This document shows, piece after piece, positions 4,254 to 59,574 of a stretch of DNA of 64,000 bases. The notes under the pieces were generated by a model, which saw only the letters and a list, made by a program, of their open reading frames with translations, was not told where the DNA came from and searched no databases. The translations under genes and the position numbers were made by a program. The stretch's first letter is position 1. Each line of letters opens with the position of its first letter. This stretch comes from Candidatus Pelethousia sp. (lineage in GTDB: Bacteria > Bacillota > Clostridia > Christensenellales > CAG-138). The stretch lies in NCBI GenBank assembly GCA_034928145.1, contig JAYFPE010000010.1, positions 27,882-91,881 of the forward strand, in the 5' to 3' direction.

Positions 4254-4799
4254 ATGCGCTATCCCGTGGCCCTCAAGCAAAACGTTTTCTGCTACCTGGC
4301 CGTTGCCCTAATGGCTGCTGCGGTTATCCTGCGCTGCGCCTACTTCCTGCCCCGCTGGGCGGAAACGGACGCCCTGGCGCTGGCGCTGCAATTCTTTCTG
4401 CCCCTGCTCAGCGGTGTGGTTTACTGCGGGGCCATGCTGGCCAAGGGCGGTAAACTCTATTTGCTCACGATTTTCTCGGTATTTCTGGGGATTACCTTCT
4501 TCATCGCCAAGGCCCAGAGCTTCGAGCATGCCTGGCACACGGTGCTTTGCACCTTGCTCTACCTTGTCGTGTTTATCATCTACACCCTCACGGCCCTGGG
4601 CGTGATGTCCTCGCTGCTCTACCAAAAGCTGGTCTTCGGTCTGCCGCTAATCTTCCACATCATTCAGGATATCTTCTTTCCATCGGCCAATATGCAAATT
4701 AGCCCCCTGCCCGAGCTTTCGGTGCTGTGCATTATGGCCGCTTTGCTCTTTGGCGCCTTTGCCCTGCAGCAAGTTAAGACCGGTTGCCAAAAAGATTAA
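4254..4799 (+). CDS. hypothetical integral membrane protein (about 5 TM segments)
   Basis: 181-aa ORF with GGAGGT 7 nt upstream of the ATG. Strongly hydrophobic segments. No family recognised. Confidence 0.6.
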   Translation: MRYPVALKQNVFCYLAVALMAAAVILRCAYFLPRWAETDALALALQFFLPLLSGVVYCGAMLAKGGKLYLLTIFSVFLGITFFIAKAQSFEHAWHTVLCTLLYLVVFIIYTLTALGVMSSLLYQKLVFGLPLIFHIIQDIFFPSANMQISPLPELSVLCIMAALLFGAFALQQVKTGCQKD

Positions 4800-4814
4800 T
4801 AACCATTCCCGTTC

Positions 4815-4843
4815 TTGACTTTTTCCCTGCTAAACGCTACAAT
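4815..4843 (+). promoter_or_regulatory. sigma-A-type promoter of the small NrdD-like gene
   Basis: TTGACT (4815-4820), 17-nt spacer, TACAAT (4838-4843), located 55 nt upstream of the ATG at 4898. Confidence 0.45.
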
Positions 4844-4897
4844 ATGTGGTATAAAAAGCGGCAGGGCACACGATATATGCCCTGAAAAGGAGTATAT

Positions 4898-5170
4898 ATG
4901 GATATGCAGGTAAACGTAACAGGGGGCGAGCTGCCCCAGGTGGAGATCGAGGCCTATATCGCCCATGGCCGCAAGAGTTATCCGGACCGGCAGATCGAGC
5001 GCATGGATGTAAAGATAGATGGCGAATATGTCGATATCAACTATTTTCTCGCCGATGAGCCCTTTACCCGCATTCGCCGCATCACGGGCTATCTGGTGGG
5101 CGATATGAGCCATTGGAACAACGCCAAGCGGGCCGAGGAAGCGGACCGGGTCAAGCATACGATGGAGTAG
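4898..5170 (+). CDS. stand-alone glycyl-radical module resembling the extreme C-terminus of anaerobic ribonucleotide reductase NrdD
   Basis: 90-aa ORF with AAGGAG 5 nt upstream. Its C-terminal FTRIRRITGYLVGDMSHWNNAKRAEEADRVKH aligns by eye with the E. coli NrdD end RRVCGYLGSPDARPFNAGKQEEVKRRVKH. Has its own promoter and terminator. Confidence 0.7.
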   Translation: MDMQVNVTGGELPQVEIEAYIAHGRKSYPDRQIERMDVKIDGEYVDINYFLADEPFTRIRRITGYLVGDMSHWNNAKRAEEADRVKHTME

Positions 5171-5187
5171 GTAATACAGAATACAAG

Positions 5188-5213
5188 CGGCCCGGCGCAT
5201 TTGCGCCGGGCCG
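5188..5213 (+). terminator. GC-rich hairpin terminator after the NrdD-like gene
   Basis: CGGCCCGGCGC-ATTT-GCGCCGGGCCG, an 11-bp perfect stem 18 nt after the stop codon. The 3' flank TATTGAT is only moderately T-rich. Confidence 0.55.
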
Positions 5214-5566: not shown

Positions 5567-6958
5567 ATGAGACCGGTTATATTGAATAAGGAGGAGCTTC
5601 TGGAACATTCCTGTAAGGAATTGCGAGGCGTGGTGCTGGATGTGTTGGAACAAACCCTCCTTGAGATGGATTCATACCGATCCTTTCTGAAAAACATAAC
5701 GGTGGAAGAATCGATTCTACGCATCGGCGACCGAAGCTGGGATCTGGATAAGGCGCGCAGCGTATATTTGATCTGCGGCGGCAAGGCGGCCAATGCAACC
5801 GCCATGGCCTTGGAAACCCTGCTCGGCCCCCGGCTTACGGGGGGTGTGGTGATTGTGAAATCCCTGGAAGGCGGCGATCGTTTTTCCAAATGCGAGGTTT
5901 ATGTGGGCGGACATCCCCTATCCAATTTGGAGGGCTATCAGGGCTGCTGCCGCATATTTGAAATGCTCGAAAAGATCGGGCCCGAGGATTTGGTGATCAG
6001 CGCCATTAGCGGGGGCACCTCCGCGCTCATGGCCTGCCCCAAGCCGGGGCTGAGCCTAGAGGCGGATATTCTTACCTCGGATATCCTTTTAAAGAGCGGT
6101 GCAAACATCCATGAAATCAACTCGGTGCGGCGGCATATTTCCCGCACCAACGGCGGCAACCTGGCAAAGCAGATCGAAGCAAAGGGCGCAGAAATGATCC
6201 TGCTCATGCATGTGGACGCCATCGGCAGCGCGCCCACGCAGGAACCTTGGGTGGCAAGGCCGGTGTTCGGCGGACCCATGGCCCCGGACCCCACGACCTT
6301 GCAGGACGCTAAGAATACCATACGCAACTATGGCCTGCAGGATAAGCTGCCCCGCACGGTTGTGGAATTCCTGGAAAACAGCACTGAGGCCGATGAAACA
6401 CCCAAGGAATTAAAGCGCCATACCACCTTTGCCGTGAACACGCTGCCGGATTTAAGCGCCTGCGCGCAGCAAAAGGCTCGGAAGATGGGCATAAACGCGC
6501 ACATCCTCAGCTCCTCCATGGTAGGGGACAGCCAGCAGGCCGGGGCGTTTTTTGCAAGCCTTGCCCGGGAGATTCAAACCTTTGGAAGGCCGTATGCGGC
6601 GCCCTGCCTGCTGATCGCCTCCGGGGAGGTTTATACCATGATCGACGATCCGCGTTCCGTGCGCGGCAGCGGCGGGCCGGGGCAGGAAATGGTGGTGGCC
6701 TTTGCCTTGGCCAACCGAGATATGCCCGGCGTGTGCTTTGCCAGCATAGACAGCGAGGGCACGGATGGCCCCACGCCGGCGGCGGGCGGTATCGTGGATT
6801 CCTGCACCTATGCCTACGCCTTGGAAAAAGGGGTGGATTTGCATAAAGCGCTGCGCCGCCACTCCACCCACCAGGCGTTGGGATCGCTGGGCTGCCTGGT
6901 GTATTCCGGGAATACGGGAACAACCCTTTGCGATTTGCACCTTTTATACATCGTGTGA
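5567..6958 (+). CDS. MOFRL/DUF4147-family kinase (glycerate 2-kinase-like), paralogue 1
   Basis: 463-aa ORF. Blocks VYVGGHPLSN, EINSVRRHISRTNGG, SIDSEGTDGPT and GNTGTTLCDL are typical of MOFRL glycerate kinases, which are often mis-annotated as hydroxypyruvate reductase. Confidence 0.85.
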   Translation: MRPVILNKEELLEHSCKELRGVVLDVLEQTLLEMDSYRSFLKNITVEESILRIGDRSWDLDKARSVYLICGGKAANATAMALETLLGPRLTGGVVIVKSLEGGDRFSKCEVYVGGHPLSNLEGYQGCCRIFEMLEKIGPEDLVISAISGGTSALMACPKPGLSLEADILTSDILLKSGANIHEINSVRRHISRTNGGNLAKQIEAKGAEMILLMHVDAIGSAPTQEPWVARPVFGGPMAPDPTTLQDAKNTIRNYGLQDKLPRTVVEFLENSTEADETPKELKRHTTFAVNTLPDLSACAQQKARKMGINAHILSSSMVGDSQQAGAFFASLAREIQTFGRPYAAPCLLIASGEVYTMIDDPRSVRGSGGPGQEMVVAFALANRDMPGVCFASIDSEGTDGPTPAAGGIVDSCTYAYALEKGVDLHKALRRHSTHQALGSLGCLVYSGNTGTTLCDLHLLYIV

Positions 6959-7019
6959 TTCTTACGCACAAACGGCCGGCTCTTTAGGATGTGCCGGCCA
7001 AACGAATTCGCGGTTTTTT

Positions 7020-7056
7020 GGGAGCCAAGCCGAATGGGCGGGGCTCCTGCTTTTTT
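7020..7056 (+). terminator. rho-independent terminator after MOFRL paralogue 1
   Basis: GGAGCC (7021-7026) pairs with GGCTCC (7042-7047), followed by TGCTTTTTT. Confidence 0.6.
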
Positions 7057-7096
7057 GCGCCGCGGCCGCCTGCGGCCGGGTTATGCAAGGCGGCGC

Positions 7097-7855
7097 TTAG
7101 TCGTTCCCCCAGTAAGGAAGCTCACTGAACTTAACCATGTGCTTGCCGCTGTTGCGGAAATCCAGAGGCCTGCTCCCCGTGATGGTGCGAAAAGCCCTGG
7201 AAAACGAGGACGCGTTGGTGTAGCCGATCTGCAAAGCAATATCGATGATGCGGTATTTTGTGTTGATCAACAGCTCCTTGGCTTTGTTGATGCGCAGCTC
7301 CGTTAAATATTCATTGGGCGTTTTGCCCATGTGGTTGCGGAACCAGGAGATATAGTAATTCGGATTATAGTTTTCTATACTGGCCAGCATTTCAATGGTA
7401 ATAGGCTCGGCATAGTGTGCTTCCAAAAACTGAATCGAAACATATCTGTGCTCCATAATCATTTTGGAATACAGGTATTGGAACAGGTATTGCACGCAGC
7501 GGCCGGTAGGATCGGCAACGGCCTCGCGCTGAAAAAGCTCCACCATGTTATGCAAATAGTCCGGCATGGAAAAAATGGGGGTTTGAATCAGTTCCTTTAC
7601 GTCATCCTCGGTGATCATTTCAGCCGGAATGCTTAGCCATATAACCTTTTTGGTACAAATCACCCGGTGGAATACATCCGGGTGAACATAGGCGATGGAG
7701 TTTGCGTTGAGCCAAAAATCCGTTTCATCGATGCGGATGTAAAGAATGTCGGAGGTGGGGATGAAAATATGGGCGTACTGGTGGGTATGCCCGGTTTGCT
7801 GACTGGGGATAAAGTCGTAATTGCATTCGATCTTCAGCACGGGCGCGCCCTCCAA
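7097..7855 (-). CDS. AraC-family transcriptional regulator
   Basis: 252-aa ORF. C-terminal double HTH ..INKAKELLINTKYRIIDIALQIGYTNASSFSRAFRTITGSRPLDFR. N-terminal cupin-like sensor region. Divergent from MOFRL paralogue 2. Confidence 0.85.
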   Translation of the reverse strand: MEGAPVLKIECNYDFIPSQQTGHTHQYAHIFIPTSDILYIRIDETDFWLNANSIAYVHPDVFHRVICTKKVIWLSIPAEMITEDDVKELIQTPIFSMPDYLHNMVELFQREAVADPTGRCVQYLFQYLYSKMIMEHRYVSIQFLEAHYAEPITIEMLASIENYNPNYYISWFRNHMGKTPNEYLTELRINKAKELLINTKYRIIDIALQIGYTNASSFSRAFRTITGSRPLDFRNSGKHMVKFSELPYWGND

Positions 7856-7886
7856 TTGTGAGTTTATGAATGGAATATATAAGTTT

Positions 7887-7905
7887 TAGCATATGATATA
7901 TGCTA
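7887..7905. promoter_or_regulatory. inverted repeat in the AraC/MOFRL-2 divergent region (candidate operator)
   Basis: TAGCATAT-GAT-ATATGCTA (8-bp arms). A related GAGCATATATGAT copy lies at 7971-7983. Confidence 0.3.
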
Positions 7906-8058
7906 CTGTCAAGCCGCAATACAGATTTATCCATAAAAACATGAATTTACGGAACGATCTGTATGAGTTTGAGCATATATGATTTTCCATAAGTGTGGTA
8001 CCATAGTACTCGCACATAGTATTATCTTTAATTATTACAGAATATTCACAAGGATTGG

Positions 8059-9465
8059 GTGGCGCAGGTGTACGAAATCAAAAAGATTCGCAATTACGAA
8101 CAACTTATTGGAAAGGGCGATTCGATTGCCAGGCAAAAGGTTCTTCAGCTTATGGACGCGGTGCTTCAGGAAGTGGATGCGGGCAAACGCATCCGGGAAA
8201 TTATGCGGCTCGATGGCGACATCCTCACGGTGGGTTGCCGCACGTGGGATCTCGCGAAAAAGCGCAACATCTACCTGATTGGCGCGGGCAAGGCCTGCAA
8301 CGCCATGGCGGAGGCGGTTTGCGATATTCTGGGAGAGCGCATCACCAAGGGCATTATTTCTATCAAAATTCAAGAGGAAACCGATCGCTATTGTAACACG
8401 GAGGTTTACGTGGGCGGGCATCCGCTCCCCAACCGTGAGGGCATGGTGGCGGCCCAGCGCATGATCGAGCTGATCAACGCCGCGGGGCCGGAGGATCTGT
8501 TTGTGGCTGTAACATCGGGCGGCAGCTCGGCGCTTCTGACCTATCCCGTGGATGGCATCACCCTGGAGGAAGAAATCGTAGCCCAAGATTTGCTGCTCAA
8601 GAGTGGCGCGAAGATCGTGGAGATCAACGCAGTTCGCCGGCACATTTCCCGCACGAACGGGGGCAGGCTGGCCGAGCTTATTTGCAACCGGGCGGGCGCG
8701 GAGCTCATCAGCCTCATGGTGAGTGATGGCGTGGGCCTCCCCAGCACGGCGCAAAGGGGTGTTCCCACCACCTTTTCGGGCACGCCGGTGGCGCCGGACG
8801 CCACCACCATTCAGGATGCGCGCAATATGATTATTAACTACGACTTGGCCCAAAAGCTGCCGGCCAGCATTGTGGACTATGTGATGGACGATGCGCGCAT
8901 TCGCGAAACCCCCAAGGCGTTCGATGAAAAACTAACCACTTTCCTGGTGGGGAGCATTGCCGATTCCTGCGAAGCGGCGATTGAGGCGGCTGAAAAGATG
9001 GGCGATTCCATTATGGTGCTCACCACTTTTCTGGAAGGCGAAAGCCGGGAAGCGGGCCACCTTCTCTCCTCCATAGCCCGCGAAATCAAAACGCTCAACC
9101 GGCCCATCAAAGCGCCATGCTTTTTAGTTTGCGCGGGGGAAACCACCACCAGCATCAATACCCCGCCCGCCGGCATGGGAGGCCCCTCACAGGAATTGGT
9201 TCTGGGGTTCAGCATCGGCATCAAGGATTATCCCGGGGTGGCGGCGGCTTCCATCGATACAGAAGGAACGGATGGAACGACGATATACGCCGGCGGCATT
9301 TGCGATAGAACCACCTTCGGCGCGCTGGAAGCAGCCAGCATAAACGTTTACGAAGCGCTTCGGTCCCATGCGAGCGGCAACGCTCTCCTGGCCATTGGAG
9401 ATAACATTTTCACGGGGAACACGGGCACCAACCTATGCGACCTCAATGTGATTTACATTGCGTAA
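8059..9465 (+). CDS. MOFRL/DUF4147-family kinase (glycerate 2-kinase-like), paralogue 2
   Basis: 468-aa ORF with a GTG start at 8059 (GTG 8068 is an alternative). Same conserved blocks as paralogue 1: VYVGGHPLPN, EINAVRRHISRTNGG, SIDTEGTDGTT, GNTGTNLCDL. Confidence 0.85.
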   Translation: MAQVYEIKKIRNYEQLIGKGDSIARQKVLQLMDAVLQEVDAGKRIREIMRLDGDILTVGCRTWDLAKKRNIYLIGAGKACNAMAEAVCDILGERITKGIISIKIQEETDRYCNTEVYVGGHPLPNREGMVAAQRMIELINAAGPEDLFVAVTSGGSSALLTYPVDGITLEEEIVAQDLLLKSGAKIVEINAVRRHISRTNGGRLAELICNRAGAELISLMVSDGVGLPSTAQRGVPTTFSGTPVAPDATTIQDARNMIINYDLAQKLPASIVDYVMDDARIRETPKAFDEKLTTFLVGSIADSCEAAIEAAEKMGDSIMVLTTFLEGESREAGHLLSSIAREIKTLNRPIKAPCFLVCAGETTTSINTPPAGMGGPSQELVLGFSIGIKDYPGVAAASIDTEGTDGTTIYAGGICDRTTFGALEAASINVYEALRSHASGNALLAIGDNIFTGNTGTNLCDLNVIYIA

Positions 9466-9507
9466 ATGTAACTTAATTTCAAATAATCAAAAAAGGGGAT
9501 GTCAATC

Positions 9508-10794
9508 ATGCAAGGGAACAAGATTAAAGCGGTAAAGGCCAGGCAGGTACTCGATAGCAATGGCCGACCAGTGGTTGAAGTGGATATCGTTACCGAAAGC
9601 GGGCATTTGGGCCGGGCAGGCGCCTCCACCGGATCTTCCGTGGGCGCGAACGAATCCTTTGTGCTTAGAGATAACGATCCCAAGATCTTTTTCGGCACGA
9701 GCGTATACAAGGCGGTGGATAACGTGAACCGCGTGATAGCCCCCGCCCTGATCGGCATGGATGTGCACGACCAGGCCGGGATCGACAAGAAGATGATCGA
9801 GTTGGATGGCACCCGCTATAAAACCAACCTGGGCGGGAACGCCATCTTCGCAACATCTTCCGCCGTAGCTTACGCGGCGGCGGCATTTAACCGCAAGCCG
9901 CTTTTCCAGAACGTTGCGCAGGGCCCCGTCAAGTATGTGTTCTCCCTTTCCTCCAATGTGGTAAACGGCGGCACCTACGGGGATAAGACCCTGGCCTTCC
10001 AGGAATTCATGGTATTGCCACACAGCGTGCCCTCTGCGCATGAGGCCGTGCGTATCATCGTGGAAGTGTTCCACCATCTGGGGGAGGTTATCAAGAAATA
10101 CAACGGCAAACCTGCGGCCATGGGCAATTACAGCGGCTATGGCGCCCCCTCGGATGACCCCTTTGTGGTATTCGAAATGATCAGCCAAGCCGTAAAAGAT
10201 TTGGGCTACGAAAAGAATGTGGCCTATGCCATGGATTGCGCGAGCAGCGAGTATTACAACACCAAGGAAGGCGCTTATGAATACCGGGGCGAGCTGGTAG
10301 GCCGGGATAAGATCATTTCCATTCTTGCCGAGCTTTCCAACAAATACCCCATCGCCTTTGTGGAGGATGCGCTGGAGGAGGAGGATTTTGAGGGCTTTAA
10401 GCTGGCCAGCGAAAAAATTAACTCCGTGATCATCGGAGACGACTTCCTGTGTAGCAGCATGGATCGCTCGCAAAAGGCCGTGGAGATGGGCGCGGCCCGG
10501 GGCATGATTTTCAAGCCCAACCAGGCCGGTACCATTACCGAGGCCATGGAAACCGCCCGCTATATGATCGACAAGGGCCTTCTGGTGGTGCCCTCCGGCC
10601 GGGCTGGCGGCACGCTGGATTCCCCGGATAAGGAACTGGGCCTGGGGCTGGGCTGCTACACCGTTAAAAGCGGCGCGCCCCGCAGCGGCGACCGGACGGC
10701 AAACCTGAATTTTGCCATGCGGGTGGAAGAAGAGCTGGGCATCCCCATGATCAACATCGTAGACCTGCCGATTTTCAGCCACTTGAAACGCTAG
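9508..10794 (+). CDS. divergent enolase-family protein (enolase paralogue with altered catalytic residues)
   Basis: ORF 9499..10794. ATG 9508 is preferred because AAGGGG lies 9 nt upstream. Collinear with canonical enolase over its full length (VLDSNGRPVVEVD, GASTG, DQAGIDKKMIELDG, FQEFMVLP, AMDCASSEYY, VEDALEE, IGDDF, FKPNQAG, VKSG, RVEEELG). NGGEHAD is replaced by NGGTYGD, GDEGGYAP by GNYSGYGAP, and SHRSGETED by SGRAGGTLD. Confidence 0.85.
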   Translation: MQGNKIKAVKARQVLDSNGRPVVEVDIVTESGHLGRAGASTGSSVGANESFVLRDNDPKIFFGTSVYKAVDNVNRVIAPALIGMDVHDQAGIDKKMIELDGTRYKTNLGGNAIFATSSAVAYAAAAFNRKPLFQNVAQGPVKYVFSLSSNVVNGGTYGDKTLAFQEFMVLPHSVPSAHEAVRIIVEVFHHLGEVIKKYNGKPAAMGNYSGYGAPSDDPFVVFEMISQAVKDLGYEKNVAYAMDCASSEYYNTKEGAYEYRGELVGRDKIISILAELSNKYPIAFVEDALEEEDFEGFKLASEKINSVIIGDDFLCSSMDRSQKAVEMGAARGMIFKPNQAGTITEAMETARYMIDKGLLVVPSGRAGGTLDSPDKELGLGLGCYTVKSGAPRSGDRTANLNFAMRVEEELGIPMINIVDLPIFSHLKR

Positions 10795-10850
10795 TATAAA
10801 TGCCTGAACGTAAAAGGCTTTTACTAAAAAATAAAAAGGAGAGAAAACAA

Positions 10851-12488
10851 ATGAAGAAGCTACTCAAAAATGGGTTAATGCTGTTCGTATGCGCCATGAT
10901 GCTGCTCACCCTGGTTGCCTGTGCCAAGCAAAGCCAGCCAGCGGCCCCGGGCACCGCACCCGCCGAGCAGAGTGGCAACCCGCTGGCCACCGAAGACGGA
11001 TTCGGCATGATCGTTTCCGCCGACCCCACCGGTATCGTGTCCAGCAAGGATTCCATGACGGTGGTCGTTGCCGCGGATCCCGGTTCGCTGGATCCGCATG
11101 ACAACGTGCAGCAGCAAAAGCACCAGTCCACCCGCCAGATTTATGAGACCCTTGTCGTTTACAATGACAACGGCGAGCTCATTCCCTGGCTGGCTGAAAG
11201 CTGGGAGTATGAGAACGACTTAACGCTGGTGTTCCACATTCGCAAGGGCGTTAAGTTCCACAATGGGGACGAGCTCAAGGCCAGCGACGTTCTCTTCTCC
11301 TTCAAGCGGATGCGTAGCGACAACACGCCCGCCGCCATGCAGGTGAACAAGGTGGATTTTGACAAGTGCGAAGTGGTGGATGATTACACCCTTAAGCTTG
11401 TTACCTCCGAGCCCTATGCCTTGCAGCTTCCCATGCTGGAGAACCCCCTGTGCGGCATCATCAGCGAGCGCAGCTATACGGAAAGCAAGGGCGATTTCAA
11501 CGCTTCCCCCGTGGGCACCGGCCCTTATAAAGTTGTGAAGTTCGTTGCGGGCGATAGCCTTACCCTGGAAGGCTTTGACGGCTACTGGATCGCCGGCCAG
11601 CCCTATGTTAAGCACGTGACCCTGCGCTACATCAACGATTCTTCCTCCCGCGCGATCGAGGCGGAGAGCGGCGGAAGTGATATCGTATACGAGATCAGTG
11701 CGAACGATGTGGACCGCGTGCGGGAAAACCCCAACATCAACCTGGTTTCCGCCATGGGCGCGAACACCAGCTACCTGTATATGAACCTGGCCCATGCCCC
11801 GCTGGATAACATAAAGGTGCGCGAGGCCATATGGTATGCGCTGGATGTCCCCGGTGCGATCGATGTGGCTTACGGCAGCTTCGGCAAACTAGCCGATGGC
11901 GTGATCTCCCCCGGCATCGACGGCCGCCACCCGGATATGAGCGCCTACTTCCCCAAGCAGGATCTGGAAAAGGCCAAGGCGCTTCTCGCGGAAGCCGGCT
12001 TCCCGAATGGTTTCACCACCGAGATTTCCTGCAACAGCTCCGACCAGCAGCGCAAGGATTTTGCTGAGGCCATTCAGGCGCAGTTGGCGCAGGTTGGCAT
12101 TACCCTTAACATCAACGTGATGGATACTTCCACCTTCGCCACCTACCTTTCTGAAGGCAAGGGCAAGATGTGCATCTATGGCCTGACCGCCAGCACCGGC
12201 GAGGCCGGCCGTACCCTGTTCCGCTGGCTGCCGGATACCTCCGAATGGCCCCTGTCAAGCTGGGAGAGCCAAGAGTATTATGATCTAATCAGCAAGGCGC
12301 TGGTTACCACCGATACTGCCGCGCGCAACGAGATGTACTACCGCTGCCAGGAGATGCTGATGGAGAACTTCATCGTTTATCCCGTGTGGCACAAAGAGCT
12401 CAACGCGGCATGCCAGCCCGGCATCGCAGGCTTCCGGATCACGCCCTCTTACGAGCAGCACTATCTGCAGTTCGTATACTTCCAATAA
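10851..12488 (+). CDS. ABC transporter substrate-binding lipoprotein, family 5 (Opp/Dpp/Nik-type)
   Basis: Start placed at ATG 10851 (AAGGAG upstream). Signal peptide plus lipobox MKKLLKNGLMLFVCAMMLLTLVAC. About 545 aa, with family-5 SBP features. Confidence 0.85.
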   Translation: MKKLLKNGLMLFVCAMMLLTLVACAKQSQPAAPGTAPAEQSGNPLATEDGFGMIVSADPTGIVSSKDSMTVVVAADPGSLDPHDNVQQQKHQSTRQIYETLVVYNDNGELIPWLAESWEYENDLTLVFHIRKGVKFHNGDELKASDVLFSFKRMRSDNTPAAMQVNKVDFDKCEVVDDYTLKLVTSEPYALQLPMLENPLCGIISERSYTESKGDFNASPVGTGPYKVVKFVAGDSLTLEGFDGYWIAGQPYVKHVTLRYINDSSSRAIEAESGGSDIVYEISANDVDRVRENPNINLVSAMGANTSYLYMNLAHAPLDNIKVREAIWYALDVPGAIDVAYGSFGKLADGVISPGIDGRHPDMSAYFPKQDLEKAKALLAEAGFPNGFTTEISCNSSDQQRKDFAEAIQAQLAQVGITLNINVMDTSTFATYLSEGKGKMCIYGLTASTGEAGRTLFRWLPDTSEWPLSSWESQEYYDLISKALVTTDTAARNEMYYRCQEMLMENFIVYPVWHKELNAACQPGIAGFRITPSYEQHYLQFVYFQ

Positions 12489-12539
12489 GAGCATAGAACA
12501 TAGGCATTGACATTCGCACGTAGTACTCCTGATAAAAGG

Positions 12540-12578
12540 GCTACGCAGGCTGCCTATCCTGCCTGCGTAGCATCTTTT
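12540..12578 (+). terminator. intercistronic hairpin / partial terminator between the SBP and permease genes
   Basis: GCTACGCAGG (12540-12549) pairs with CCTGCGTAGC (12562-12571), followed by ATCTTTT. Confidence 0.5.
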
Positions 12579-12615
12579 GATATGAAATCGAACTATATTT
12601 AGGTGGTGTGAATCT

Positions 12616-13614
12616 TTGATTCGATATATTTTAAAACGAATTCTTATGATGCTTCCCGTCCTCGTGGGGATAATCACCATCGTGTTTACATTAATGTATT
12701 TCACGCCTGGAGATCCCGCGTTATCCATTCTGGGTGAAAACGCAACCCCGGAGCAGGTGTCGCAGATTCACCAAGAGTTGGGATTAGATGATCCGTACAT
12801 CGTGCGCCTGGGGCGGTATCTTTGGAATGCCGCGCAGGGCGATTTTGGCACCTCCTATAGAACCGGCAACCCGGTTATCCAGGAGATTATGGATCGTTAT
12901 CCCAACACCTTAAAACTGGCTGTTCTGAGCACATTCTTAGGCATCATCATCGGGGTTACGGCGGGCATCATATCCGCTGTGCGCCAATATTCCTTCCTTG
13001 ATAGAGCCCTGACTACCTTTTCCCTTTTCGGTGTGTCCGCGCCTTCCTTCTGGATCGCGATGCTGCTGGTTCTGCTTTTTTCGCTAAATTTTAAGTGGCT
13101 GCCGGCCACGGGAAGCTACGGCCCTATTTATTGGGTGCTGCCGGTGTTTACGCTGGGCCTGCAGGCGAGCGCCTCCATCATGCGCATGACCCGCTCCAGT
13201 ATGCTGGAGGTTATCCGGCAGGATTACGTGCGCACCAGCAAGGCCAAGGGGCAAAGCAGCTTCCTTACCATTATGCGGCACGCCTTCAAAAATGCCCAGG
13301 TGCCCATCGTAACGACCATCGGCATTCGTATTACCGGCTTTTTGGCGGGCGCGGTGCTGGTGGAAACCGTATTTGCGATCCCCGGCCTTGGCAAGTATAT
13401 TGTGGATAGCGTTGGGTTTAAGGATTACCCCGTTGTTCAGGGCGGCGTTTTGTGGATCGGCTTCAACTGCGTGGTGATCAACCTGCTGGTGGATATTATC
13501 TACTGCCTCATTGATCCGCGCGTTAAATCGCAATATGCATCTAAGAAAAAGAAAAAGCCCGCGGCCCTAAGCGCAAGGCCGGCCGAGGAATGCGGAGGTG
13601 AGGATCGTGGTTGA
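12616..13614 (+). CDS. ABC transporter permease (DppB/OppB-like)
   Basis: 332-aa ORF with a TTG start after AGGTGG. N-terminal MIRYILKRILMMLPVLVGIITIVF..FTPGDP is typical of DppB-type permeases. Six TM segments. Confidence 0.85.
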   Translation: MIRYILKRILMMLPVLVGIITIVFTLMYFTPGDPALSILGENATPEQVSQIHQELGLDDPYIVRLGRYLWNAAQGDFGTSYRTGNPVIQEIMDRYPNTLKLAVLSTFLGIIIGVTAGIISAVRQYSFLDRALTTFSLFGVSAPSFWIAMLLVLLFSLNFKWLPATGSYGPIYWVLPVFTLGLQASASIMRMTRSSMLEVIRQDYVRTSKAKGQSSFLTIMRHAFKNAQVPIVTTIGIRITGFLAGAVLVETVFAIPGLGKYIVDSVGFKDYPVVQGGVLWIGFNCVVINLLVDIIYCLIDPRVKSQYASKKKKKPAALSARPAEECGGEDRG

Positions 13615-14485
13615 TACCGTAGAAAAAATCCCTCTAAAAAAGAAAAAGATATCCCTCGCCCAAGAGGTGATCAAGCGGCTCATGCGCAATAAGATGGCTG
13701 TGGCCGGCCTGGTTATTTTGGTTGTGGTGCTGCTTTCCTCCCTGCTTGCGCCCTTGCTTTCGCCCTATGACTATGCCACACAGAATTATGGGGAACGCTT
13801 TGTTTTCCCAAATTGGGCACATCCCTTTGGAACGGATAACTTTGGTCGGGATATTCTGACCAGGGTTCTCTATGGCGGCCGGTATACGCTCTTTATCGCG
13901 TTTGTGGTTACCAGCATCGCGGCCGTGGCCGGGGCGCTTGTGGGGCTGTTCGCGGCCTATTTCCCCAAGAGCGATAACATTCTGATGCGCACCATCGATA
14001 TCTTCATGGGCATTCCCCAGATGATGATGTGCGTGAGCATCATCGCGGCGCTGGGCGGCAGTATGAAAAACATGATGATTGCGCTAACGATTACGGCAAC
14101 GCCCGAGTTCGCCCGGATCATGCGGGCGCAGGTGCTTACCCTTAAGGACCAGGAGTTTGTGGAAGCCGCCCGCTCGATCGGCGGCAGTAATCTGCGCATC
14201 ATGTTCCGCCACATCCTTCCCAATGCGTTGGCGCCCATTATCGTGCAATATACCCTGGGCGCGGTCAATACCATCCTGATGAGCGCATCTTTGAGCTTCG
14301 TGGGCATGGGTGTGCAGCCGCCCACGCCGGAGTGGGGCCTGATGATATCCGCAGGTCGCGCCTACCTGCGTGATTATTGGTATGTGGCCATCCTCCCGGG
14401 CCTGGCCATCATCGTGGCGTCCTATGCGTTGAATCTGCTGGGCGATGGATTGAGGGACGCCCTTGACCCGCGCCTAAAGCGATAA
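13598..14485 (+). CDS. ABC transporter permease (DppC/OppC-like)
   Basis: 295-aa ORF that overlaps the upstream permease by 17 nt. Contains [10 protein letters not shown] and an EAA-like loop ([24 protein letters not shown]). Confidence 0.85.
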
Positions 14486-14498
14486 AGGAGGGATGAAC

Positions 14499-15488
14499 AT
14501 GCACCCGCAAGAACAAACGCTGCTGCAAATCAAAGAATTGGTTGTGCACTATATTGTGGATAAAGATGTTGTGGAATCCGTAAACAACATTACGCTTTCC
14601 CTAAACGAGGGGGAAACGCTGGGCCTAGTGGGTGAAACCGGCGCCGGCAAAACCACCACGGCATTGAGCATTATGGGGCTTATCCCCAACCCGCCGGGCA
14701 AGGTCGTGGGCGGTGAAATCTTCTATAACGGGCTGGACCTGCTCAAAAAAACGGATAAGGAGATGAGAAAGATACGGGGCAAGGATATTGCCATGATCTT
14801 TCAAGACCCCATGACCTCCCTTAACCCTGTTATTACCGTGGGCGATCAGATCATGGAGGCGATCCAGCTCCACGAAAAGAGCAGTAAGGCCGAGGCCGCG
14901 GCCAAGGCAAAGCAAATGCTGGAGCTTGTGGGCATTTCCGGCGAGCGGTATGGGGAATACCCCCATCAGTTCTCCGGCGGCATGAAGCAGCGCGTGGTAA
15001 TTGCCATGGCGCTGGCCTGCAACCCCCGGATTCTCATTGCGGATGAGCCCACCACCGCGCTAGATGTAACCATCCAGGCGCAGGTGCTGGATATGATGAA
15101 GCGGCTCAAGAGCGAATACAACACGGCTATGCTGCTTATTACCCATGACTTGGGCGTGGTGGCCGAGGTGTGCGATAAGGTTGCCATCATGTATGCGGGG
15201 GAGATCGTGGAAAACGGTGCGCTGCGGGATGTGTTCGGCCAGCCTTCCCATCCTTATACCCTGGGCCTGTTCAACTCCATTCCGGATTTGGACTCCACGG
15301 CGGAAAGGCTGCAAGCCATAAGCGGCCTGGTTCCGGATCCTTCCAACCTGCCGAGCGGGTGCAGGTTCCATCCCCGCTGCCAGTATGCGATGGAAAGGTG
15401 CGCACAGCAGAACCCGCCTGCCTTTGAAATGACGCCGGAGCACCATGTGAAGTGCTGGAAATTTGCCAAGGATGAGGGGGCGCGGTAA
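14499..15488 (+). CDS. ABC transporter ATP-binding protein (DppD/OppD-like)
   Basis: Walker [10 protein letters not shown], signature FSGGMKQR, Walker [13 protein letters not shown], and the C-terminal oligopeptide-type extension. ATG 14499 is preferred over 14493 on RBS spacing. Confidence 0.9.
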
Positions 15489-15489
15489 T

Positions 15490-16452
15490 ATGGAAACCTT
15501 ATTGGAAGTTAAGCATCTTAAAAAACATTTTAACACTAAGTCCGGCTTGCTCCACGCGGTGGATGACATCAGCTTCACTCTGGAAAAAGGCAAGACCCTT
15601 GGTGTGGTGGGGGAATCCGGCTGCGGCAAATCCACCCTGGGCCGGGTTATCCTACACCTGTTGGAGGCAACGGAGGGGCAGATCCTGTTCAAGGGGCAGG
15701 ATATATCCAAGCCCGGCAAAAGAGAGCTGCACCATTTGCGCCGGAATATGCAGATGGTGTTCCAGGATCCTTTCTCCTCCCTGAACCCGCGCTTTTCCGT
15801 GGCGGAAATCATCGGGGAGCCCCTACTGATCTATAAGGCCTGCAAAACCAAAGAGAAATACCGGGATAGGGTGCGCAACATAATGGAAACCGTAGGCCTG
15901 CCCGAGCGGTATGAAAACGTATATCCCCATGAGCTGGATGGCGGCCGCCGCCAGCGCATCGGCCTGGGCCGGGCTCTAGCCCTGAACCCGGAGTTTATTA
16001 TTTGCGATGAGCCCGTATCGGCCTTGGATGTATCCATCCAGGCCCAAATTCTTAACCTTTTGCAGGATTTGCAAGCGAAGCGGAACCTGACCTATATTTT
16101 CGTTACCCACGATCTATCCGTGGTCAAGCATATCTCGGATGAGATCATGGTTATGTATCTTGGGGTTATGGTGGAAAAGTGCCCCTCCGCGGATCTGTTT
16201 GCCAAGCAGCTCCACCCTTACACAAAGGCTTTGCTCAGCGCCATTCCGCAGGCCAAGTTGGATATAAAGCGGGATCGCATCCTGCTTAGGGGCGAGTTGA
16301 CTTCCCCCATCAATCCGGCCCCCATATGCCGGTTCGCAGCCCGCTGCAACTATGCCTGCGATGCGTGCCTGCAAAAGCAGCCACCGCTGGAGGAAGTGCT
16401 GCCCGGCCATTTTGTGGCGTGCCACAGGGTTCGCGAGATCAACGATTTATAA
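15490..16452 (+). CDS. ABC transporter ATP-binding protein (DppF/OppF-like)
   Basis: Start at METLLEVKHLKK, 1 nt after the upstream stop. Walker A GESGCGKST, Walker B FIICDEPVSALD, and a Cys-rich C-terminal tail. Confidence 0.9.
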   Translation: METLLEVKHLKKHFNTKSGLLHAVDDISFTLEKGKTLGVVGESGCGKSTLGRVILHLLEATEGQILFKGQDISKPGKRELHHLRRNMQMVFQDPFSSLNPRFSVAEIIGEPLLIYKACKTKEKYRDRVRNIMETVGLPERYENVYPHELDGGRRQRIGLGRALALNPEFIICDEPVSALDVSIQAQILNLLQDLQAKRNLTYIFVTHDLSVVKHISDEIMVMYLGVMVEKCPSADLFAKQLHPYTKALLSAIPQAKLDIKRDRILLRGELTSPINPAPICRFAARCNYACDACLQKQPPLEEVLPGHFVACHRVREINDL

Positions 16453-16478
16453 ATTTATAAATAGAGGAGACTGTTAAA

Positions 16479-17654
16479 ATGCACGTTACAGAGGTAAATG
16501 TTTACCTGGTTGATACAGGCAGTTTTCGCCCGGTCGTTGTGGAGCTAGTTACGGATGAAAACATTGTAGGCATAGGCGAGGGTGCCGTAGGCTTTGGCGT
16601 GGGTTGCCACGGAGCCGCCCACATGGCTGCAGAACTGGCCGAGCGGTTTGTGATTGGTAAGGATCCTTCTGCCATCGCCTCCATTTGGAACGATTTCTAT
16701 TACGATACCTTCTGGGGCAAGGGCGCGGGCGCCATCTTTTATGCGGCCGTAAGCGCCATAGAGCAGGCGCTTTGGGATATCAAGGGCAAGGCGCTGGGCG
16801 TGCCGGTCTACGAGCTTTTGGGCGGTAAGCAGCGGGATAAAATCCGCGTTTACGCCAACGGCTGGTCCGAGGGCAAGTGCGTAACCGCACAGGATTTTGC
16901 CGACCGGGCGGTAGAGGTGGTGGAGCAGGGCTACACCGCCATCAAGATGTATCCCCTCAGCCAGATCGATCCGATCCGGGGCCTGAACAGGCATCTAAAA
17001 AACCGGGAGGTCAGCAAGGCGGATTTTCGCAGAGCCGTGGATGCGGTGCGCCTAGTTCGTGAGGCCGTTGGACCGGATATCGATATCATGGTGGATGTTA
17101 CGGCGGAGGGCACAACGGACGCCATGTTCCAGTTGGCCCAGGCCATTGAACCCTATGATATTTTCTGGTTTGAAGAGGCCATGGACGCCTTTGATGTAGA
17201 TGCCTACATGACGGTTCGCCAAAAGACCAACCTTACCCTGACGACCGGGGAACGCCTTTATACCCGATATGGCTTCCGCCGCCTGTTTGAAACGCGCGCG
17301 GTGGATATCGTGCAGCCCGATCCCGGCACTTGTGGCGGCATCCTGGAGCTTTTTCACATTGCGGCAACGGCAGAGACCTATAACATGCGCGTGGCGCCCC
17401 ACAACTGCGGCGGCCCGGTACTTTGCGGCGCGGCCCTCCAGCTCGCGGCCTGCGTGAGCAACCTTGCCATCCAGGAGATCTTCCCCTTCCATGGGGATAT
17501 GCACTACTCTATTGTGGAAGAAGCGTTTGAGAAAAAGGTAAATAATGGATATGTGGATGTACCCACGGCCCCCGGCCTGGGCATAACGCTCAACCACAAG
17601 GTGGTGGATCCGTTCCGCATCGCGCACATAACCCTCAAAAACAGGGGCGCTTAA
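16479..17654 (+). CDS. enolase-superfamily (mandelate racemase/muconate lactonizing enzyme) protein, DgoD-like acid-sugar dehydratase
   Basis: 391-aa ORF. [27 protein letters not shown]. Metal-ligand blocks DIMVDV, FWFEEA, TTGERLY. VQPD and VAPHNCGGP align by eye with E. coli DgoD. Confidence 0.8.
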   Translation: [391 protein letters not shown]

Positions 17655-17753
17655 GGGAAACTCAGGACAGCTCGCTTCCGGGGTATTCTCACTTCTACCG
17701 CTTCACTATCCTGCCAAAGGGGCTGTCATGCTAAGCGACAGCTCAGCATAAAA

Positions 17754-17790
17754 ACGAGCCGGGGCAAGTAATGCCAAGGCTCGTTTTTTC
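17754..17790 (+). terminator. rho-independent terminator closing the ABC/dehydratase operon
   Basis: ACGAGCC (17754-17760) pairs with GGCTCGT (17778-17784), followed by TTTTTT. Confidence 0.65.
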
Positions 17791-17805: not shown

Positions 17806-18529
17806 ATGAAAACACCAGTATTACAAGAGAATCATAGCGAAAAATCGAGCGGAGTGCAAGTGGAGATGCCGCTGGATTTGGGAATGCGCATCGAAGCAGG
17901 AAATACGATGAGGACGCTGATCCATGGAAAGGATGGATTACAGCGAATTGACCCAAACATACCAGCGCCGGCCACGCAGGGGCTAGGCGACGCCGAAGCA
18001 GCTGTTTGGGATCGTAGTCCTGGTGTTCGTGAACGGGCAGTTTTTCACGCGAAAAATAGAGATGGCATCCCGAAATGATATTCGGTTCATGTATCTGCTG
18101 AGCGGAAACCGCGCGCCCGATCACAGCAGACTAGTAAGCTTTACCAGTGAACACCTAAAGGATGGAGTGCTGGAGCGATTATTCTATCAGATGGTGGAGA
18201 TGCTCAAGGAACAGGGGGAAATCAGCTTTAAGCACCTGGATGGAACAGAGATCGAGGCGAACGCCAATCGATACAGCTTTGTATGGGCGAAATCCACGAG
18301 CAAATATGTGGCGCGGGCGGATGAAAAGCTTAGTGCGCTGCTCGATCGCCTGACGCTGGAGTACGGGATTGTGCGCGGTGCCGCTAAAGCATACTGGGAA
18401 ACACTGCTGGAGAGAAAGGAAGCGGCAATAGTTAAAGGCTGCCGCGCCTTTCTTAACACGACAGCCCCATTTGTAGGCTATACCGAACTACACGCCCTGC
18501 ATCTTCGGCCTCTTCCAATCATCCCTTGA
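17806..18529 (+). pseudogene. IS1182-family transposase remnant (frameshifted N-terminal part; DDE catalytic region missing)
   Basis: Three frames together read ..EMPLDLGMRIEAGNTMRTLI.. / ..MDYSELTQTYQRRPRRG.. / ..RKIEMASRNDIRFMYLLSGNRAPDHSRLVSFTSEHL..LDGTEIEANANRYSFVWAKS.., blocks typical of the IS1182 transposase N-terminus. There is no intact ORF, and homology stops after about 240 codons. Confidence 0.7.
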
Positions 18530-55875: not shown

Positions 55876-57225
55876 TTATGGCCGACGATATCGCGCGCTC
55901 TTTGTACGAGGCAGATACCGGCCTATGCCGGGGCACAGCAATTTGCCATTGCGGACGACCTGGCGCCCGCCGATTAGAACATCACGGGCGGCGCCTTCGA
56001 CACACAGCCCGGAAAAAATCGAAGCATCGCAGTCATGCGCATGATTGGTATCGGTAATCGTGCTTTTTATAGCGGGATCCCAAATGACGACGTCCGCCGC
56101 GTATCCTTCCCGGATGACGCCATAGTCCGTAAGGCCGAATAGTGCTGCGGCATTTGCGGAAAGCAGCCCAACCATGCGCTCCGGCGTAATACGGTCGGCG
56201 AGGACGCCAAAGGTATGCAGCAATTGCGGGCGATGCTGTATGCTGGCGCAGCCGTTTGGCACCAGGGAGAAGTTGTCGGCATATTCCAGCTTTTGCTCCA
56301 TGGAAAAGGAACAATGGTCTGTTCCGATCACGTCGATTTCACCGCCTTGCAGCGCTGTCCAGAGAGCGGCTTGATCCTCCGGCTTGCGCAGGGGGGGGCT
56401 TAAGATAAATTTGACGCCATCGGCCTGCGCATATTTGGCATCGTTTAGCAGCAGATATTGCATGCAGGTTTCTACGTAGACCTCCTGGCCGCGCGCCCGC
56501 GCCCGGCGGACTTCCTCTAGGCCCTCCATCGTAGAAAGATGCACGATATACGCGGGCGCTTGCGCCAGTTGCGCAATCCGTAAAAAACGCGCCACAGCCT
56601 CAGCTTCCACGGCTGGCGGCCGGCTCAGAGGGTGACCAGACGCGCCTACAACGCCCCTTTTCAGGACCTCCTGTGTAATGCGGAGCAGCACCTCCCAATT
56701 TTCACAATGCACGCCCAGCAAATAATCATACCGGCGCAGCGCGCGCAGCGCGCCGTAAATCTCGCCATCGTCAACCTTGAGCCCATTGTAAACCATATAC
56801 ATTTTGAAGGAAGATATGCCTTTACGCCCAATATGGGGGAGCTCATCTTCCAGGGCATCCGTCCATTCGGTAAGCGCCATGTGGAACCCATAATTCGTAC
56901 TGCTGCCCGCGGCTTTTTTTAGCCAGTCCGCAAGCGCGTCTTCCATCGTGCAGCCGCGCTGCTGATTGGCAAATTCCAATACGGCCGTGGTGCCGCCCAG
57001 CACCGCCGCCTTGGTATCTTGCACAAAAAGGTGGGGCGAGAGTTCCAGGTGGGTATGTGTATCGATAAAACCGGGCATCACATAGCAGCCTTGGGCATCT
57101 AGTACGATATCGGCATCCGGCAATTCGGGGCCGATCCGCGTAATCCGATCGTCCTGAACCAGCAAATCGGTTTTACGCCGACCATCGGCATTGATGATGG
57201 TGCCATTTTGAATCCGAACAGACAT
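55876..57225 (-). CDS. cyclic amidohydrolase of the dihydropyrimidinase / D-hydantoinase family
   Basis: 449 aa. PGFIDTHTHLE metal site, carboxylated-Lys context SFKMYMVYN, VHCEN, GTDHCSF, and the amidohydrolase fold. Confidence 0.85.
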   Translation of the reverse strand: MSVRIQNGTIINADGRRKTDLLVQDDRITRIGPELPDADIVLDAQGCYVMPGFIDTHTHLELSPHLFVQDTKAAVLGGTTAVLEFANQQRGCTMEDALADWLKKAAGSSTNYGFHMALTEWTDALEDELPHIGRKGISSFKMYMVYNGLKVDDGEIYGALRALRRYDYLLGVHCENWEVLLRITQEVLKRGVVGASGHPLSRPPAVEAEAVARFLRIAQLAQAPAYIVHLSTMEGLEEVRRARARGQEVYVETCMQYLLLNDAKYAQADGVKFILSPPLRKPEDQAALWTALQGGEIDVIGTDHCSFSMEQKLEYADNFSLVPNGCASIQHRPQLLHTFGVLADRITPERMVGLLSANAAALFGLTDYGVIREGYAADVVIWDPAIKSTITDTNHAHDCDASIFSGLCVEGAARDVLIGGRQVVRNGKLLCPGIGRYLPRTKSARYRRP

Positions 57226-57249
57226 GCTTGTTCCTTCCCCATACAGTAG

Positions 57250-57858
57250 CTAACGAATGAAATTCACCTTCTTGCAAAGCGCCTCACAGGCAGCTTGCTT
57301 GCGTTGGTTAAAGAGGACTTTATTCTCCTCAAATAAGTTGTCGCCCCGGCTGTCAACGGATACAATCAGCGGCCCCAGTTCTTTGACTCTGCACACCCAT
57401 AGGCTTTCCGGCATGCCGAGATCGGTCCATTCCACCCTTTCGATTTCCTCAACCGCATTGGCGGCCAGAACCGCACACCCCGCAGGGAATACGCAATGCA
57501 GCGCCTGATGATCCCGACAGCCGGCCGATGTGCCTGCACCCATAGCGCCCTTGCCGACAATCAGCCTCACACCGGTTTCCGCAATAAATTGCCGCTCAAA
57601 CTTTTCCATGCGCATGCTGGTCGTCGGCCCGATGGAAACCATCTCATAGGCGCCGTCCGCACTTTTGCGAACGATCGGCCCGGCATGGAAAATAGCGCTG
57701 TCGCGCACGGAAACGGGCAGGGGTATGCCCTCCTCGATTAACCGGCGATGGCCGACATCGCGGCAGGTAACGATGTGCCCGGTATAGTAGATCACATCCC
57801 CGATCCGGATGGACGCGAGATCCTCTTTGCTGATGGGTTCGGTTAAAGTTTTTTTCAT
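57250..57858 (-). CDS. Fe-S hydro-lyase beta subunit (L(+)-tartrate dehydratase TtdB / class I fumarate hydratase C-terminal type)
   Basis: 202 aa. ..[39 protein letters not shown].. is typical of the TtdB/FumA_C family. ATGA overlap with the alpha subunit. Confidence 0.85.
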
Positions 57859-58751: not shown

Positions 58752-58768
58752 GAAAGTGAATGCTCCTT

Positions 58769-59548: not shown

Positions 59549-59574
59549 AAATATAAATTCTCCTTTTTTAGATA

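Follow-up and report, generated by a model that had tools for sequence, protein, structure and literature searches.

MOFRL-type glycerate 2-kinases that feed enolase are known from the nonphosphorylative Entner–Doudoroff (npED) pathway, the serine cycle and the ttu tartrate operon of Agrobacterium vitis. All characterised MOFRL enzymes are glycerate 2-kinases, and an acid-sugar dehydratase of the MR_MLE type also belongs to the npED pathway (PMC2063504). In this study, we analyzed a locus of Candidatus Pelethousia sp. in which the same two families, kinase and enolase, are found in the same order. The locus occupies positions 5567–17790 of a 64-kb stretch of contig JAYFPE010000010.1 (64,000 nucleotides), which is referred to as the window. 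It encodes a MOFRL/DUF4147 kinase (K2), a non-canonical enolase-family protein (the atypical enolase), a family-5 solute-binding protein (SBP) with the permeases and ATPases of an Opp/Dpp-type importer, an MR-subgroup member of the enolase superfamily (the MR enzyme), one AraC/XylS-family regulator and a second MOFRL kinase (K1). Different from the known systems, the cassette contains no aldolase, aldehyde dehydrogenase, tartrate dehydrogenase or hydroxypyruvate reductase; its kinases are not equivalogs of the characterised glycerate kinases, and their enolase partner, a dedicated paralogue, is altered.

Novelty appears to lie in the changed enolase clade, in its near-obligate coupling with a kinase and in the cassette that surrounds the pair; all their parts belong to known families. 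Full-text literature searches, with most subscription journals outside their scope, did not turn up any account of a MOFRL kinase in a pair with an enolase paralogue. With moderate confidence, we read the locus as a self-contained catabolic cassette of anaerobic Clostridia and their relatives, in which a kinase and then an enolase-like lyase would act on an imported acid.

The atypical enolase and its kinase partner

In canonical enolase (EC 4.2.1.11), Asp246, Glu295 and Asp320 are the metal ligands, Lys345 is the base and Glu211 is the general acid; His373 and His159 contact the C3 hydroxyl and the phosphate, and Arg374 and Lys396 serve as phosphate/carboxylate clamps. Substitution of Glu211 by Gln (E211Q) cuts the activity ∼1e5-fold. 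The atypical enolase is 36–40% identical to the canonical enzymes. Its AlphaFold model (pLDDT 94.9), which confirms the fold only, has a TM-score of 0.93 to the two-domain fold of the solved enolases, every one of which is at most 38% identical in sequence. We aligned the protein to the enolase of M. jannaschii and then to 121 family members (47–100% identity), using the yeast enolase numbering. Ser39, Glu168, Asp246, Glu295, Asp320, Lys345, Arg374 and Lys396 are kept in all 121 sequences. Different from canonical enolase, Glu211 is replaced by Tyr (119 of 121), His159 by Tyr (115), His373 by Gly (105), Asp210 by Asn (108) and Ser375 by Ala (116), and the Glu of GET in the SHRSGET motif is Gly in 121/121. 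Judged from this pattern, the residues predicted to bind carboxylate, 2-phosphate and both Mg ions are retained, and the replaced ones are exactly those expected to touch the C3 hydroxyl of 2-phosphoglycerate and to help it leave. The C3 pocket is thereby predicted to be rebuilt, enlarged and less acidic. Because the equivalents of Glu211, His373 and His159 are replaced across the family, the protein is not the housekeeping enolase, an alternative that the earlier note on this DNA had raised.

We surveyed one genome per GTDB species, which returned 80 loci, and performed the linkage test over 83 loci. In a neighbour-joining tree of 84 sequences, all 38 distinct enolases without Glu211 form one clade, apart from the 46 canonical ones. 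A MOFRL gene is located within 400 nt upstream of 36 of the 38 atypical enolase genes, whereas none of 45 canonical genes in the same scan has such a neighbour (Fisher p = 2e-21). The pairing of MOFRL kinase and atypical enolase is almost obligate, and, different from the canonical genes, the atypical ones are found in transporter operons of the substrate-inducible type. By their motifs, the enolases without Glu211 divide into at least four groups: A, to which the window protein belongs, B, the commonest, and the smaller C and D. The group-A statistics come from about ten independent loci. Clustering of the homologues of the window protein (47–100% identity) at 90% gives at least 120 clusters, nearly all of them metagenomic. 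One metagenome-assembled genome (CAZHNN01) holds both a group-A (L006, 75% identity) and a group-B (L008, 47%) kinase–enolase module; for this reason, the two groups probably act on different substrates.

Gene fusions join the same activities. A profile search against 1.84 billion representatives retrieved 3,587 enolase-family representatives at E ≤ 1e-30, and among the 150 best, ∼40 have neither of the canonical motifs. P0242 is a natural 894-residue DUF4147-MOFRL-Enolase_N-Enolase_C fusion with an atypical, group-B-type enolase part, and its domain content argues for a Rosetta-stone link between the kinase and the enolase-like activities. In the representative clusters P0249, P0250 and P0253, a His_Phos_1 (phosphoglycerate-mutase-type) domain is fused to an atypical enolase without Glu211. 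These fusions fit a vicinal-diol phospho-acid substrate, and they hint that the same chemistry may have a variant fed by a mutase.

The earlier note had called the locus an orphan. On the contrary, it is a widespread module with several subgroups, and the gene combination recurs in other lineages. The full ten-gene order is present at 63–79% identity in at least three other metagenomic lineages (L086, L087/L088 and L089); since the whole order recurs, the arrangement is far beyond chance. L086 has the full window architecture and a K1-type kinase gene 3′ of the MR gene, and in L087/L088 the full architecture is found on 24 or more contigs. In L089, LysR replaces AraC and the enolase-like gene is tandemly duplicated. 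The same arrangement, tandem atypical enolase genes behind a single kinase gene, is present in both L089 (8702–11284) and L031 (6383–8977), the latter an MR-containing cassette with a TTT transporter; a heteromer or two stereospecificities are possible explanations.

Shorter versions are found in more lineages. Trimmed cassettes without ABC genes have the order AraC/kinase–enolase–MR, with or without K1, in L003/L006 and L005, and Paratissierella segnis (L007) has IclR/kinase–enolase–DcuC/YfcC–MR. In L091 (RpiR–NhaC–kinase–enolase) the pair stands alone with a transporter, and in L093 it follows GntR, amidohydrolase and TAXI TRAP genes. Because the same pair recurs with and without the ABC, MR and K1 genes, the kinase–enolase pair is the invariant core; MR enzyme, importer and K1 lie at the periphery and can be exchanged. 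The regulators near the module are AraC, LysR, IclR, RpiR or GntR, and the transporters ABC, TRAP, TTT, DcuC/YfcC or NhaC; these adjoining regulators and transporters give the module its catabolic character.

Enolase homologues also function in phosphonate biosynthesis, and PhpH, the enolase homologue of phosphinothricin biosynthesis, is a precedent for an enolase paralogue that acts on a modified 2-substituted glycerate. Pathways with DUF1537 four-carbon acid-sugar kinases activate a hydroxy acid with ATP before C–O/C–C chemistry, although the kinase family differs. Both are leads only; different from these systems, the cassette has no decarboxylase, isomerase or phosphonate genes. Given the phosphonate precedent and the key catalytic residues missing from the atypical enolase, one may ask whether the protein is a non-catalytic (binding or moonlighting) paralogue, or the cluster biosynthetic instead of catabolic. 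We consider this very improbable: none of the metal ligands varies, nor do Lys345 and Lys396, and the residues that stand in for the lost ones are conserved as well. In many lineages the gene shares an operon with an importer and with regulators that respond to substrate, and no recurring biosynthetic genes are found nearby.

The two kinases of the window share 44% identity. Pfam detects both the DUF4147 and the MOFRL domain in each, and the four shared motifs quoted in the earlier note (VYVGGHPL, INxVRRHISRTNGG, SIDxEGTDGxT and GNTGTxLCDL) are present in both. K1 and K2 score 149 and 170 bits against one glycerate 2-kinase equivalog model (cut-off 550) and 100 and 129 bits against the other (cut-off 670), below both cut-offs. 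With the solved kinases (PDB 1x3l and 2b8n) they score 190–250 bits, values that do not mark either as a plain glycerate kinase. K1-type orthologues lie 3′ of the MR gene in L003/L006 and L086, and none is present in cassettes L005, L007, L087 and L089. Because it is separately transcribed and absent from several orthologous cassettes, K1 is accessory, not part of the core.

These scores bear on an ordinary, npED-like glycerate branch, in which the MR enzyme would dehydrate an imported sugar acid, an aldolase and an aldehyde oxidoreductase encoded elsewhere would give glycerate, K1 and K2 would be plain glycerate 2-kinases and the atypical enolase a divergent isozyme. Such a branch would use exactly the npED enzymes, MR_MLE dehydratase, MOFRL kinase and enolase, and would agree with the glycerate 2-kinase activity of all characterised MOFRL enzymes (PMC2063504). 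The full enolase fold and a score above the enolase equivalog cut-off also speak for it. However, Glu211, His373 and His159 are replaced in essentially the whole clade, the kinases lie far under the equivalog cut-offs, and the importer is of the peptide/opine type, not the sugar-acid type. The two modules in the CAZHNN01 genome would be hard to explain if both only made phosphoenolpyruvate (PEP) from glycerate. As the earlier note had remarked for this locus, the connecting enzymes are missing as well: an aldolase or aldehyde dehydrogenase was found in 0/8 cassettes, and no aldolase, aldehyde dehydrogenase or 2-keto-3-deoxygluconate (KDG)-type kinase is encoded in any MR-containing cassette examined. 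No KDG aldolase or glyceraldehyde dehydrogenase/oxidoreductase gene is present at the window locus or within 10 kb on either side in the orthologous cassettes, although such genes may lie elsewhere in the genome. We therefore regard the glycerate branch as improbable.

Proposed route and competing chemistries

In the catabolic route that we favour, the AraC-type regulator, probably bound at the direct repeats of 7941–7975, would control the operon from K2 to the MR gene, and a stem-loop after the SBP gene would skew expression toward the binding protein. The ABC system would import a carboxylic acid. K2 would then phosphorylate the hydroxyl alpha to the carboxylate with ATP, as predicted by homology (PMC2063504). 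On the most economical view, the atypical enolase would abstract the alpha-proton of this 2-phospho-acid, a compound other than 2-phosphoglycerate, and eliminate the beta-substituent; its product, PEP or a 3-substituted PEP analogue, could be turned into a 2-oxo acid and ATP by the housekeeping pyruvate kinase. The likeliest substrate would be a 2,3-dihydroxy acid longer than glycerate, probably with a second carboxylate or an amino-acid-derived part. The MR enzyme may act as a feeder that makes the K2 substrate from the imported compound or its isomer, through epimerisation or through dehydration at a distant position. A larger 2,3-dihydroxy acid is favoured because of the phosphoglycerate-mutase-like fusions, the repeated presence of two unrelated acid-sugar dehydratase families nearby and the di-/tricarboxylate-type transporters in sister cassettes. 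A nitrogenous conjugate or a non-hydroxyl leaving group is also in play, owing to the peptide/opine-type importer, the peptidase-rich context of the MR homologue 2poz and the nitrogen-metabolism genes next to group-B modules. Among the substrates considered were tartrate, sulfolactate, pantothenate, hydroxyectoine and Amadori/opine compounds, and the data single out none of these. A private branch running from kinase through 2-phospho-acid to an enolase-like step had been suggested in the earlier note; the recurrence, the altered enolase, the 36/38 versus 0/45 linkage and the MOFRL–enolase fusion all strengthen it, while its chemistry is what we infer.

Like the Opp/Dpp/Gsi and opine (AgaA, AccA) importers, the cassette importer has all five components: a family-5 SBP with a lipoprotein signal, OppB- and OppC-type permeases, and two oligo_HPY ATPases. 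The best solved relatives of the SBP are GsiB/YliB (190 bits) and AgaA (175 bits), and all its PDB matches are ∼30% identical. Different from those importers, it meets no ligand-class cut-off (GsiB model, 214 versus 594 bits; NikA-type, 194 versus 600), sits between two metabolic genes and is co-inherited with them.

The MR enzyme best matches 2poz in the PDB (356 bits, 46% identity), a Mesorhizobium structural-genomics protein, and is 32% identical to E. coli DgoD. Among characterised families, the galactonate, gluconate and mannonate dehydratases come nearest to it. Like DgoD, the mannonate dehydratases and 2poz, it belongs to the MR subgroup with three metal ligands (D206, E232 and E258) and a His/Asp dyad (H308/D281), as aligned to DgoD. 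We take His185 to be the general acid of DgoD and His285/Asp258 to be its dyad. The position of His185 is Thr208 in the MR enzyme, there is a 14-residue insertion after β2 relative to DgoD, and the score of 268 bits is below the DgoD cut-off of 311. The earlier description as a DgoD-like dehydratase thus stands at the level of the MR-subgroup family, but not at that of DgoD itself. Since the DgoD cut-off is missed and His185 is absent, a role as dehydratase and one as epimerase are both possible. Different from DgoD, 2poz is encoded outside a sugar-acid context: on Mesorhizobium japonicum pMLa (L099, 7695–11149) its gene follows TRAP DctP and C45 peptidase genes, with Xaa-Pro peptidase and HutI-like amidohydrolase genes divergent to this set and a DMT transporter gene nearby. 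This context appears not to be of the sugar-acid type and suggests an amino-acid-derived substrate. A shared 2-epimerase role for the MR enzyme and the group-B LarA-like racemases is an attractive idea, which the residues do not decide.

A sub-case of the favoured route is an aldarate or polyhydroxy-diacid pathway, in which the MR enzyme would dehydrate one end of an imported dicarboxylic sugar acid, and K2 and the atypical enolase would perform an ATP-coupled dehydration at the other, 2,3-dihydroxy-acid end. The characterised dehydratases nearest to the MR enzyme fit this pathway, and so do the TTT (L031), DcuC/YfcC (L007) or ABC transporters of MR cassettes and the unrelated IlvD/Edd-family dehydratase encoded beside the pair on plasmids of Brucella anthropi and Agrobacterium cucumeris. 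Moreover, the acidic residues near the substrate C3 are now neutral (D210N, E211Y) and would tolerate an anionic substituent. On the other hand, the acid His that DgoD and ManD have is absent from the MR enzyme, group-A pairs are also found without any dehydratase (L091 and L093), and the neighbours of the 2poz gene are peptidase and amidohydrolase genes. Aldarates are not known as ligands of family-5 SBPs, and the predicted diketo-diacid product has no known downstream route. We view the aldarate pathway as possible but rather unlikely.

The hosts of group B are Clostridia, Treponema, Pseudomonas, Burkholderia, Mesorhizobium, Sinomonas, Holophaga and Thermoleophilia. In 11 loci the neighbour is an OCD/SbnB-like protein that carries the NCBI name ‘tyramine oxidase subunit B’; further neighbours are RpiR, TRAP, LarA-like racemases, DAO, proline-racemase-family proteins and oxoprolinase-type hydantoinases. 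In L092 (1–12257), NCS1, PreT, PreA and dihydropyrimidinase genes stand directly ahead of a group-B kinase–enolase–RpiR set, with YgeY-like M20 hydrolase and OCD-family genes upstream; by gene order, this looks like a reductive pyrimidine-type pathway that finishes at the pair. Brucella anthropi pOANT01 (L096) and Agrobacterium cucumeris pO132a (L097) carry a near-identical 20-kb block (∼1–20700). It contains oxoprolinase-type hydantoinase A/B, a sugar-phosphate isomerase-like protein, an amino-acid ABC system, an SDR and an IlvD-type dehydratase, and further GntR, the DUF4147 kinase, the atypical enolase, OCD, a cupin, Glu dehydrogenase, a tautomerase and pyruvate carboxylase. PGAP names the pair ‘DUF4147 domain-containing protein’ and ‘enolase C-terminal domain-like protein’ on both plasmids. 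Possibly, this is a catabolic island of the opine type carried by a hairy-root plasmid.

These neighbourhoods raise the question whether the atypical enolase is a PEP-forming beta-elimination lyase. Its substrate would be a 3-substituted lactate, either isoserine or a conjugate in which a 2-hydroxy-2-carboxyethyl group is N-, S- or O-linked to an amino acid or peptide; K2 would add the 2-phosphate, the atypical enolase would expel an amine, thiol or alkoxide, and the MR enzyme would epimerise C2 or cleave the other isomer to pyruvate. With a leaving group that needs no protonation, the general acid would be expected to be lost, and kinase, atypical enolase and transporter alone, as in L091, would make a complete pathway. 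The peptide/opine-type importer with its matches to GsiB and AgaA, the peptidases and amidohydrolases around 2poz, and the group-B ties to OCD/SbnB-like, DAO, proline-racemase, oxoprolinase-type and dihydropyrimidinase genes all point to nitrogenous substrates. The argument is, however, purely chemical; fewer acidic residues would not help to bind an ammonium leaving group, and the mutase-like fusions favour a vicinal diol, with OH as leaving group. Besides, such conjugates are not known as nutrients, and a literature search on isoserine with kinase and enolase gave nothing. A PEP-forming lyase that acts on such 3-substituted lactates is therefore a doubtful option.

Several observations weigh against the kinase-then-lyase cassette as we have drawn it. 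The atypical enolase scores 353 bits against the NCBI enolase equivalog TIGR01060, above the cut-off of 300, and its relatives bear the database label phosphopyruvate hydratase for this reason; no canonical enolase gene is present within the 64-kb window. Without the general acid Glu211, departure of the hydroxyl would have to fall to Tyr211 or Glu168, and the MR enzyme appears to keep one clear base only, the His/Asp dyad. At L090 (9125–13033), a group-A-like enolase with the motifs KPNMIGT and SLRSGG lies between RpiR and the mannose-family phosphotransferase system genes EIIC/EIID, with no MOFRL kinase. Finally, transporter types across the kinase–enolase loci are heterogeneous, and the onward route for the enolase product is not encoded in the cassette.

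Layout and regulation of the window locus

The features of the locus are listed below. Positions and domains of all ten open reading frames (ORFs) given by the earlier note were reproduced by the ORF list and profile searches, and so were the intergenic distances of 42, 56, 127, −17, 13, 1 and 26 nt when the likely start codons were used.

Features of the kinase–enolase locus (window coordinates)
Feature	Position	Strand	Evidence or remark
K1, MOFRL/DUF4147 kinase paralogue, accessory	5567–6958	+	Pfam DUF4147 164 bits, MOFRL 80 bits
Two GC-rich hairpins with T-runs, likely terminator region	6970–7060		between convergent K1 and AraC; read from sequence
AraC/XylS-family regulator, divergent to operon	7097–7855	−	Pfam HTH_18 76 bits, HTH_AraC 56 bits
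Candidate operator, direct repeats ATGAATTTACGGA and ATGAGTTTGAGCA, starts 22 nt apart	7941–7953, 7963–7975	+	
K2, MOFRL/DUF4147 kinase, partner of atypical enolase	8059–9465	+	Pfam 194 and 86 bits
Atypical enolase, non-canonical enolase-family protein	9499–10794, probable start 9508	+	Enolase_N/C domains
Family-5 solute-binding lipoprotein (SBP)	10800–12488, probable start 10851	+	SBP_bac_5 317 bits, lipobox LVAC
Intra-operon stem-loop 3′ of SBP gene	12540–12579	+	11-bp stem at 12540–12571, then AUCUUUUG
Permease pair, Opp/Dpp-type, 17-nt overlap	12616–14485	+	BPD_transp_1 with BPD_transp_1_N; OppC_N
ATPase pair, Opp/Dpp-type	14493–16452	+	ABC_tran and oligo_HPY in each
MR enzyme, MR-subgroup enolase-superfamily, 2poz-like	16479–17654	+	MR_MLE_N/C
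Intrinsic terminator ending operon	17750–17790	+	stem AAAAACGAGCC/GGCUCGUUUUU, inner GGCA/UGCC stem
Possible transposase fragment beside locus	18023–18529	+	DUF772 23.0 bits, cut-off 23.1

The later start of the atypical enolase is favoured by the ribosome-binding site AAGGGG just 5′ of it; the resulting 428-residue form is present as an exact sequence in two metagenomes, whereas exact-sequence lookup found no match for the 431-residue form. The likely start of the SBP gene gives a lipoprotein signal peptide that ends in LVAC. From this arrangement, the genes for K2, the atypical enolase, the SBP, the two permeases, the two ATPases and the MR enzyme probably form one operon and K1 its own transcription unit, because K1 has its own upstream region and two T-run hairpins at its 3′ side. 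One of these hairpins is GGCCGGC...GCCGGCC, and the other is GGGAGCC...GGGGCTCC, followed by TGCTTTTTTG.

The hairpin that the earlier note placed in the 127-nt gap after the SBP gene was found as described, and strong stem-loops occupy the same position 3′ of the orthologous SBP genes in L087 and L089. A stem-loop behind the binding-protein gene is frequent in ABC operons and lifts the ratio of binding protein to membrane component. The closing terminator likewise folds as had been said, with z = −4.1 for the region.

The AraC–K2 spacer is AT-rich (31% GC). The ATGARTTTRNGNA pattern has only two matches in the 64-kb window, both at the candidate operator, against 0.18 expected, and ATGAATTTA recurs in four orthologous AraC–kinase spacers, including those of L003, L005 and L086. 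The direct repeats fit an AraC-type operator; the assignment is suggestive only because the pattern was picked after the data were seen. The spacer also contains a perfect palindrome, AGCATATGATATATGCT, at 7888–7905, which may be the site of a second regulator. In the AraC regulator a C-terminal double helix-turn-helix was found, and the N-terminal ∼135 residues have no Pfam match. Its orthologues (41–55% identity) take the same divergent position in L003, L005, L086 and L087.

The earlier note had also suggested horizontal acquisition from a preference for A/T-ending codons and had reported an insertion sequence remnant next to the operon. GC at third codon positions (GC3) is 0.70 for the ten locus genes and 0.74 for the 32 other ORFs of the window (Mann–Whitney p = 0.012), a real but modest shift. 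A fragment is indeed present beside the locus, but its match to DUF772 is marginal. From this small shift and this fragment, the case for acquisition of the locus is weak. The similarity of FtsH (84% to metagenome-assembled genomes of Oscillospiraceae and Candidatus Pelethousia) puts the host in Clostridia, whereas the names of some homologues would have suggested Synergistota.

Two other regions of the window were noted. At 55876–64000, GC (0.48–0.55) and GC3 (0.54–0.66) are markedly below the rest and deviate more than those of the locus, as was also noted for the part at 58–62 kb; this may be an acquired region. Between the PBP gene and K1 (4254–5200), two ORFs (181 residues on the + strand and 134 on the − strand) have no Pfam match, and an 11-bp all-GC terminator hairpin at 5188–5213 bounds them.

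Meaning for the enolase and MOFRL families

The enolase family proper is usually taken to have a single function. Tentatively, and with more doubt than belief, we suggest that the MOFRL-linked clade is the first functionally divergent branch inside it, a Mg-dependent lyase that would release PEP from a 2-phospho-3-substituted propanoate by expelling not water but an amine, thiol or alkoxide. If this is true, kinase and atypical enolase would together make up a two-gene funnel to PEP, which would be portable and, in Clostridia, Spirochaetes, Actinobacteria and Proteobacteria, plugged behind a variety of upstream enzymes, among them MR, LarA-like, OCD, oxoprolinase-type, dihydropyrimidinase and IlvD-type proteins.

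The rebuilt leaving-group pocket, together with the coupling and sometimes the fusion to a kinase, implies an unrecognised reaction and an equally unrecognised two-step entry into central metabolism, in a module that anaerobes of the gut and of digesters carry and that is also present on plasmids of rhizobia and agrobacteria. Identification of the substrate would fix a systematic misannotation as phosphopyruvate hydratase, add a new specificity to two well-studied families and give a function to the structural-genomics orphan 2poz. It would probably also uncover the catabolism of one or more abundant, overlooked acids.

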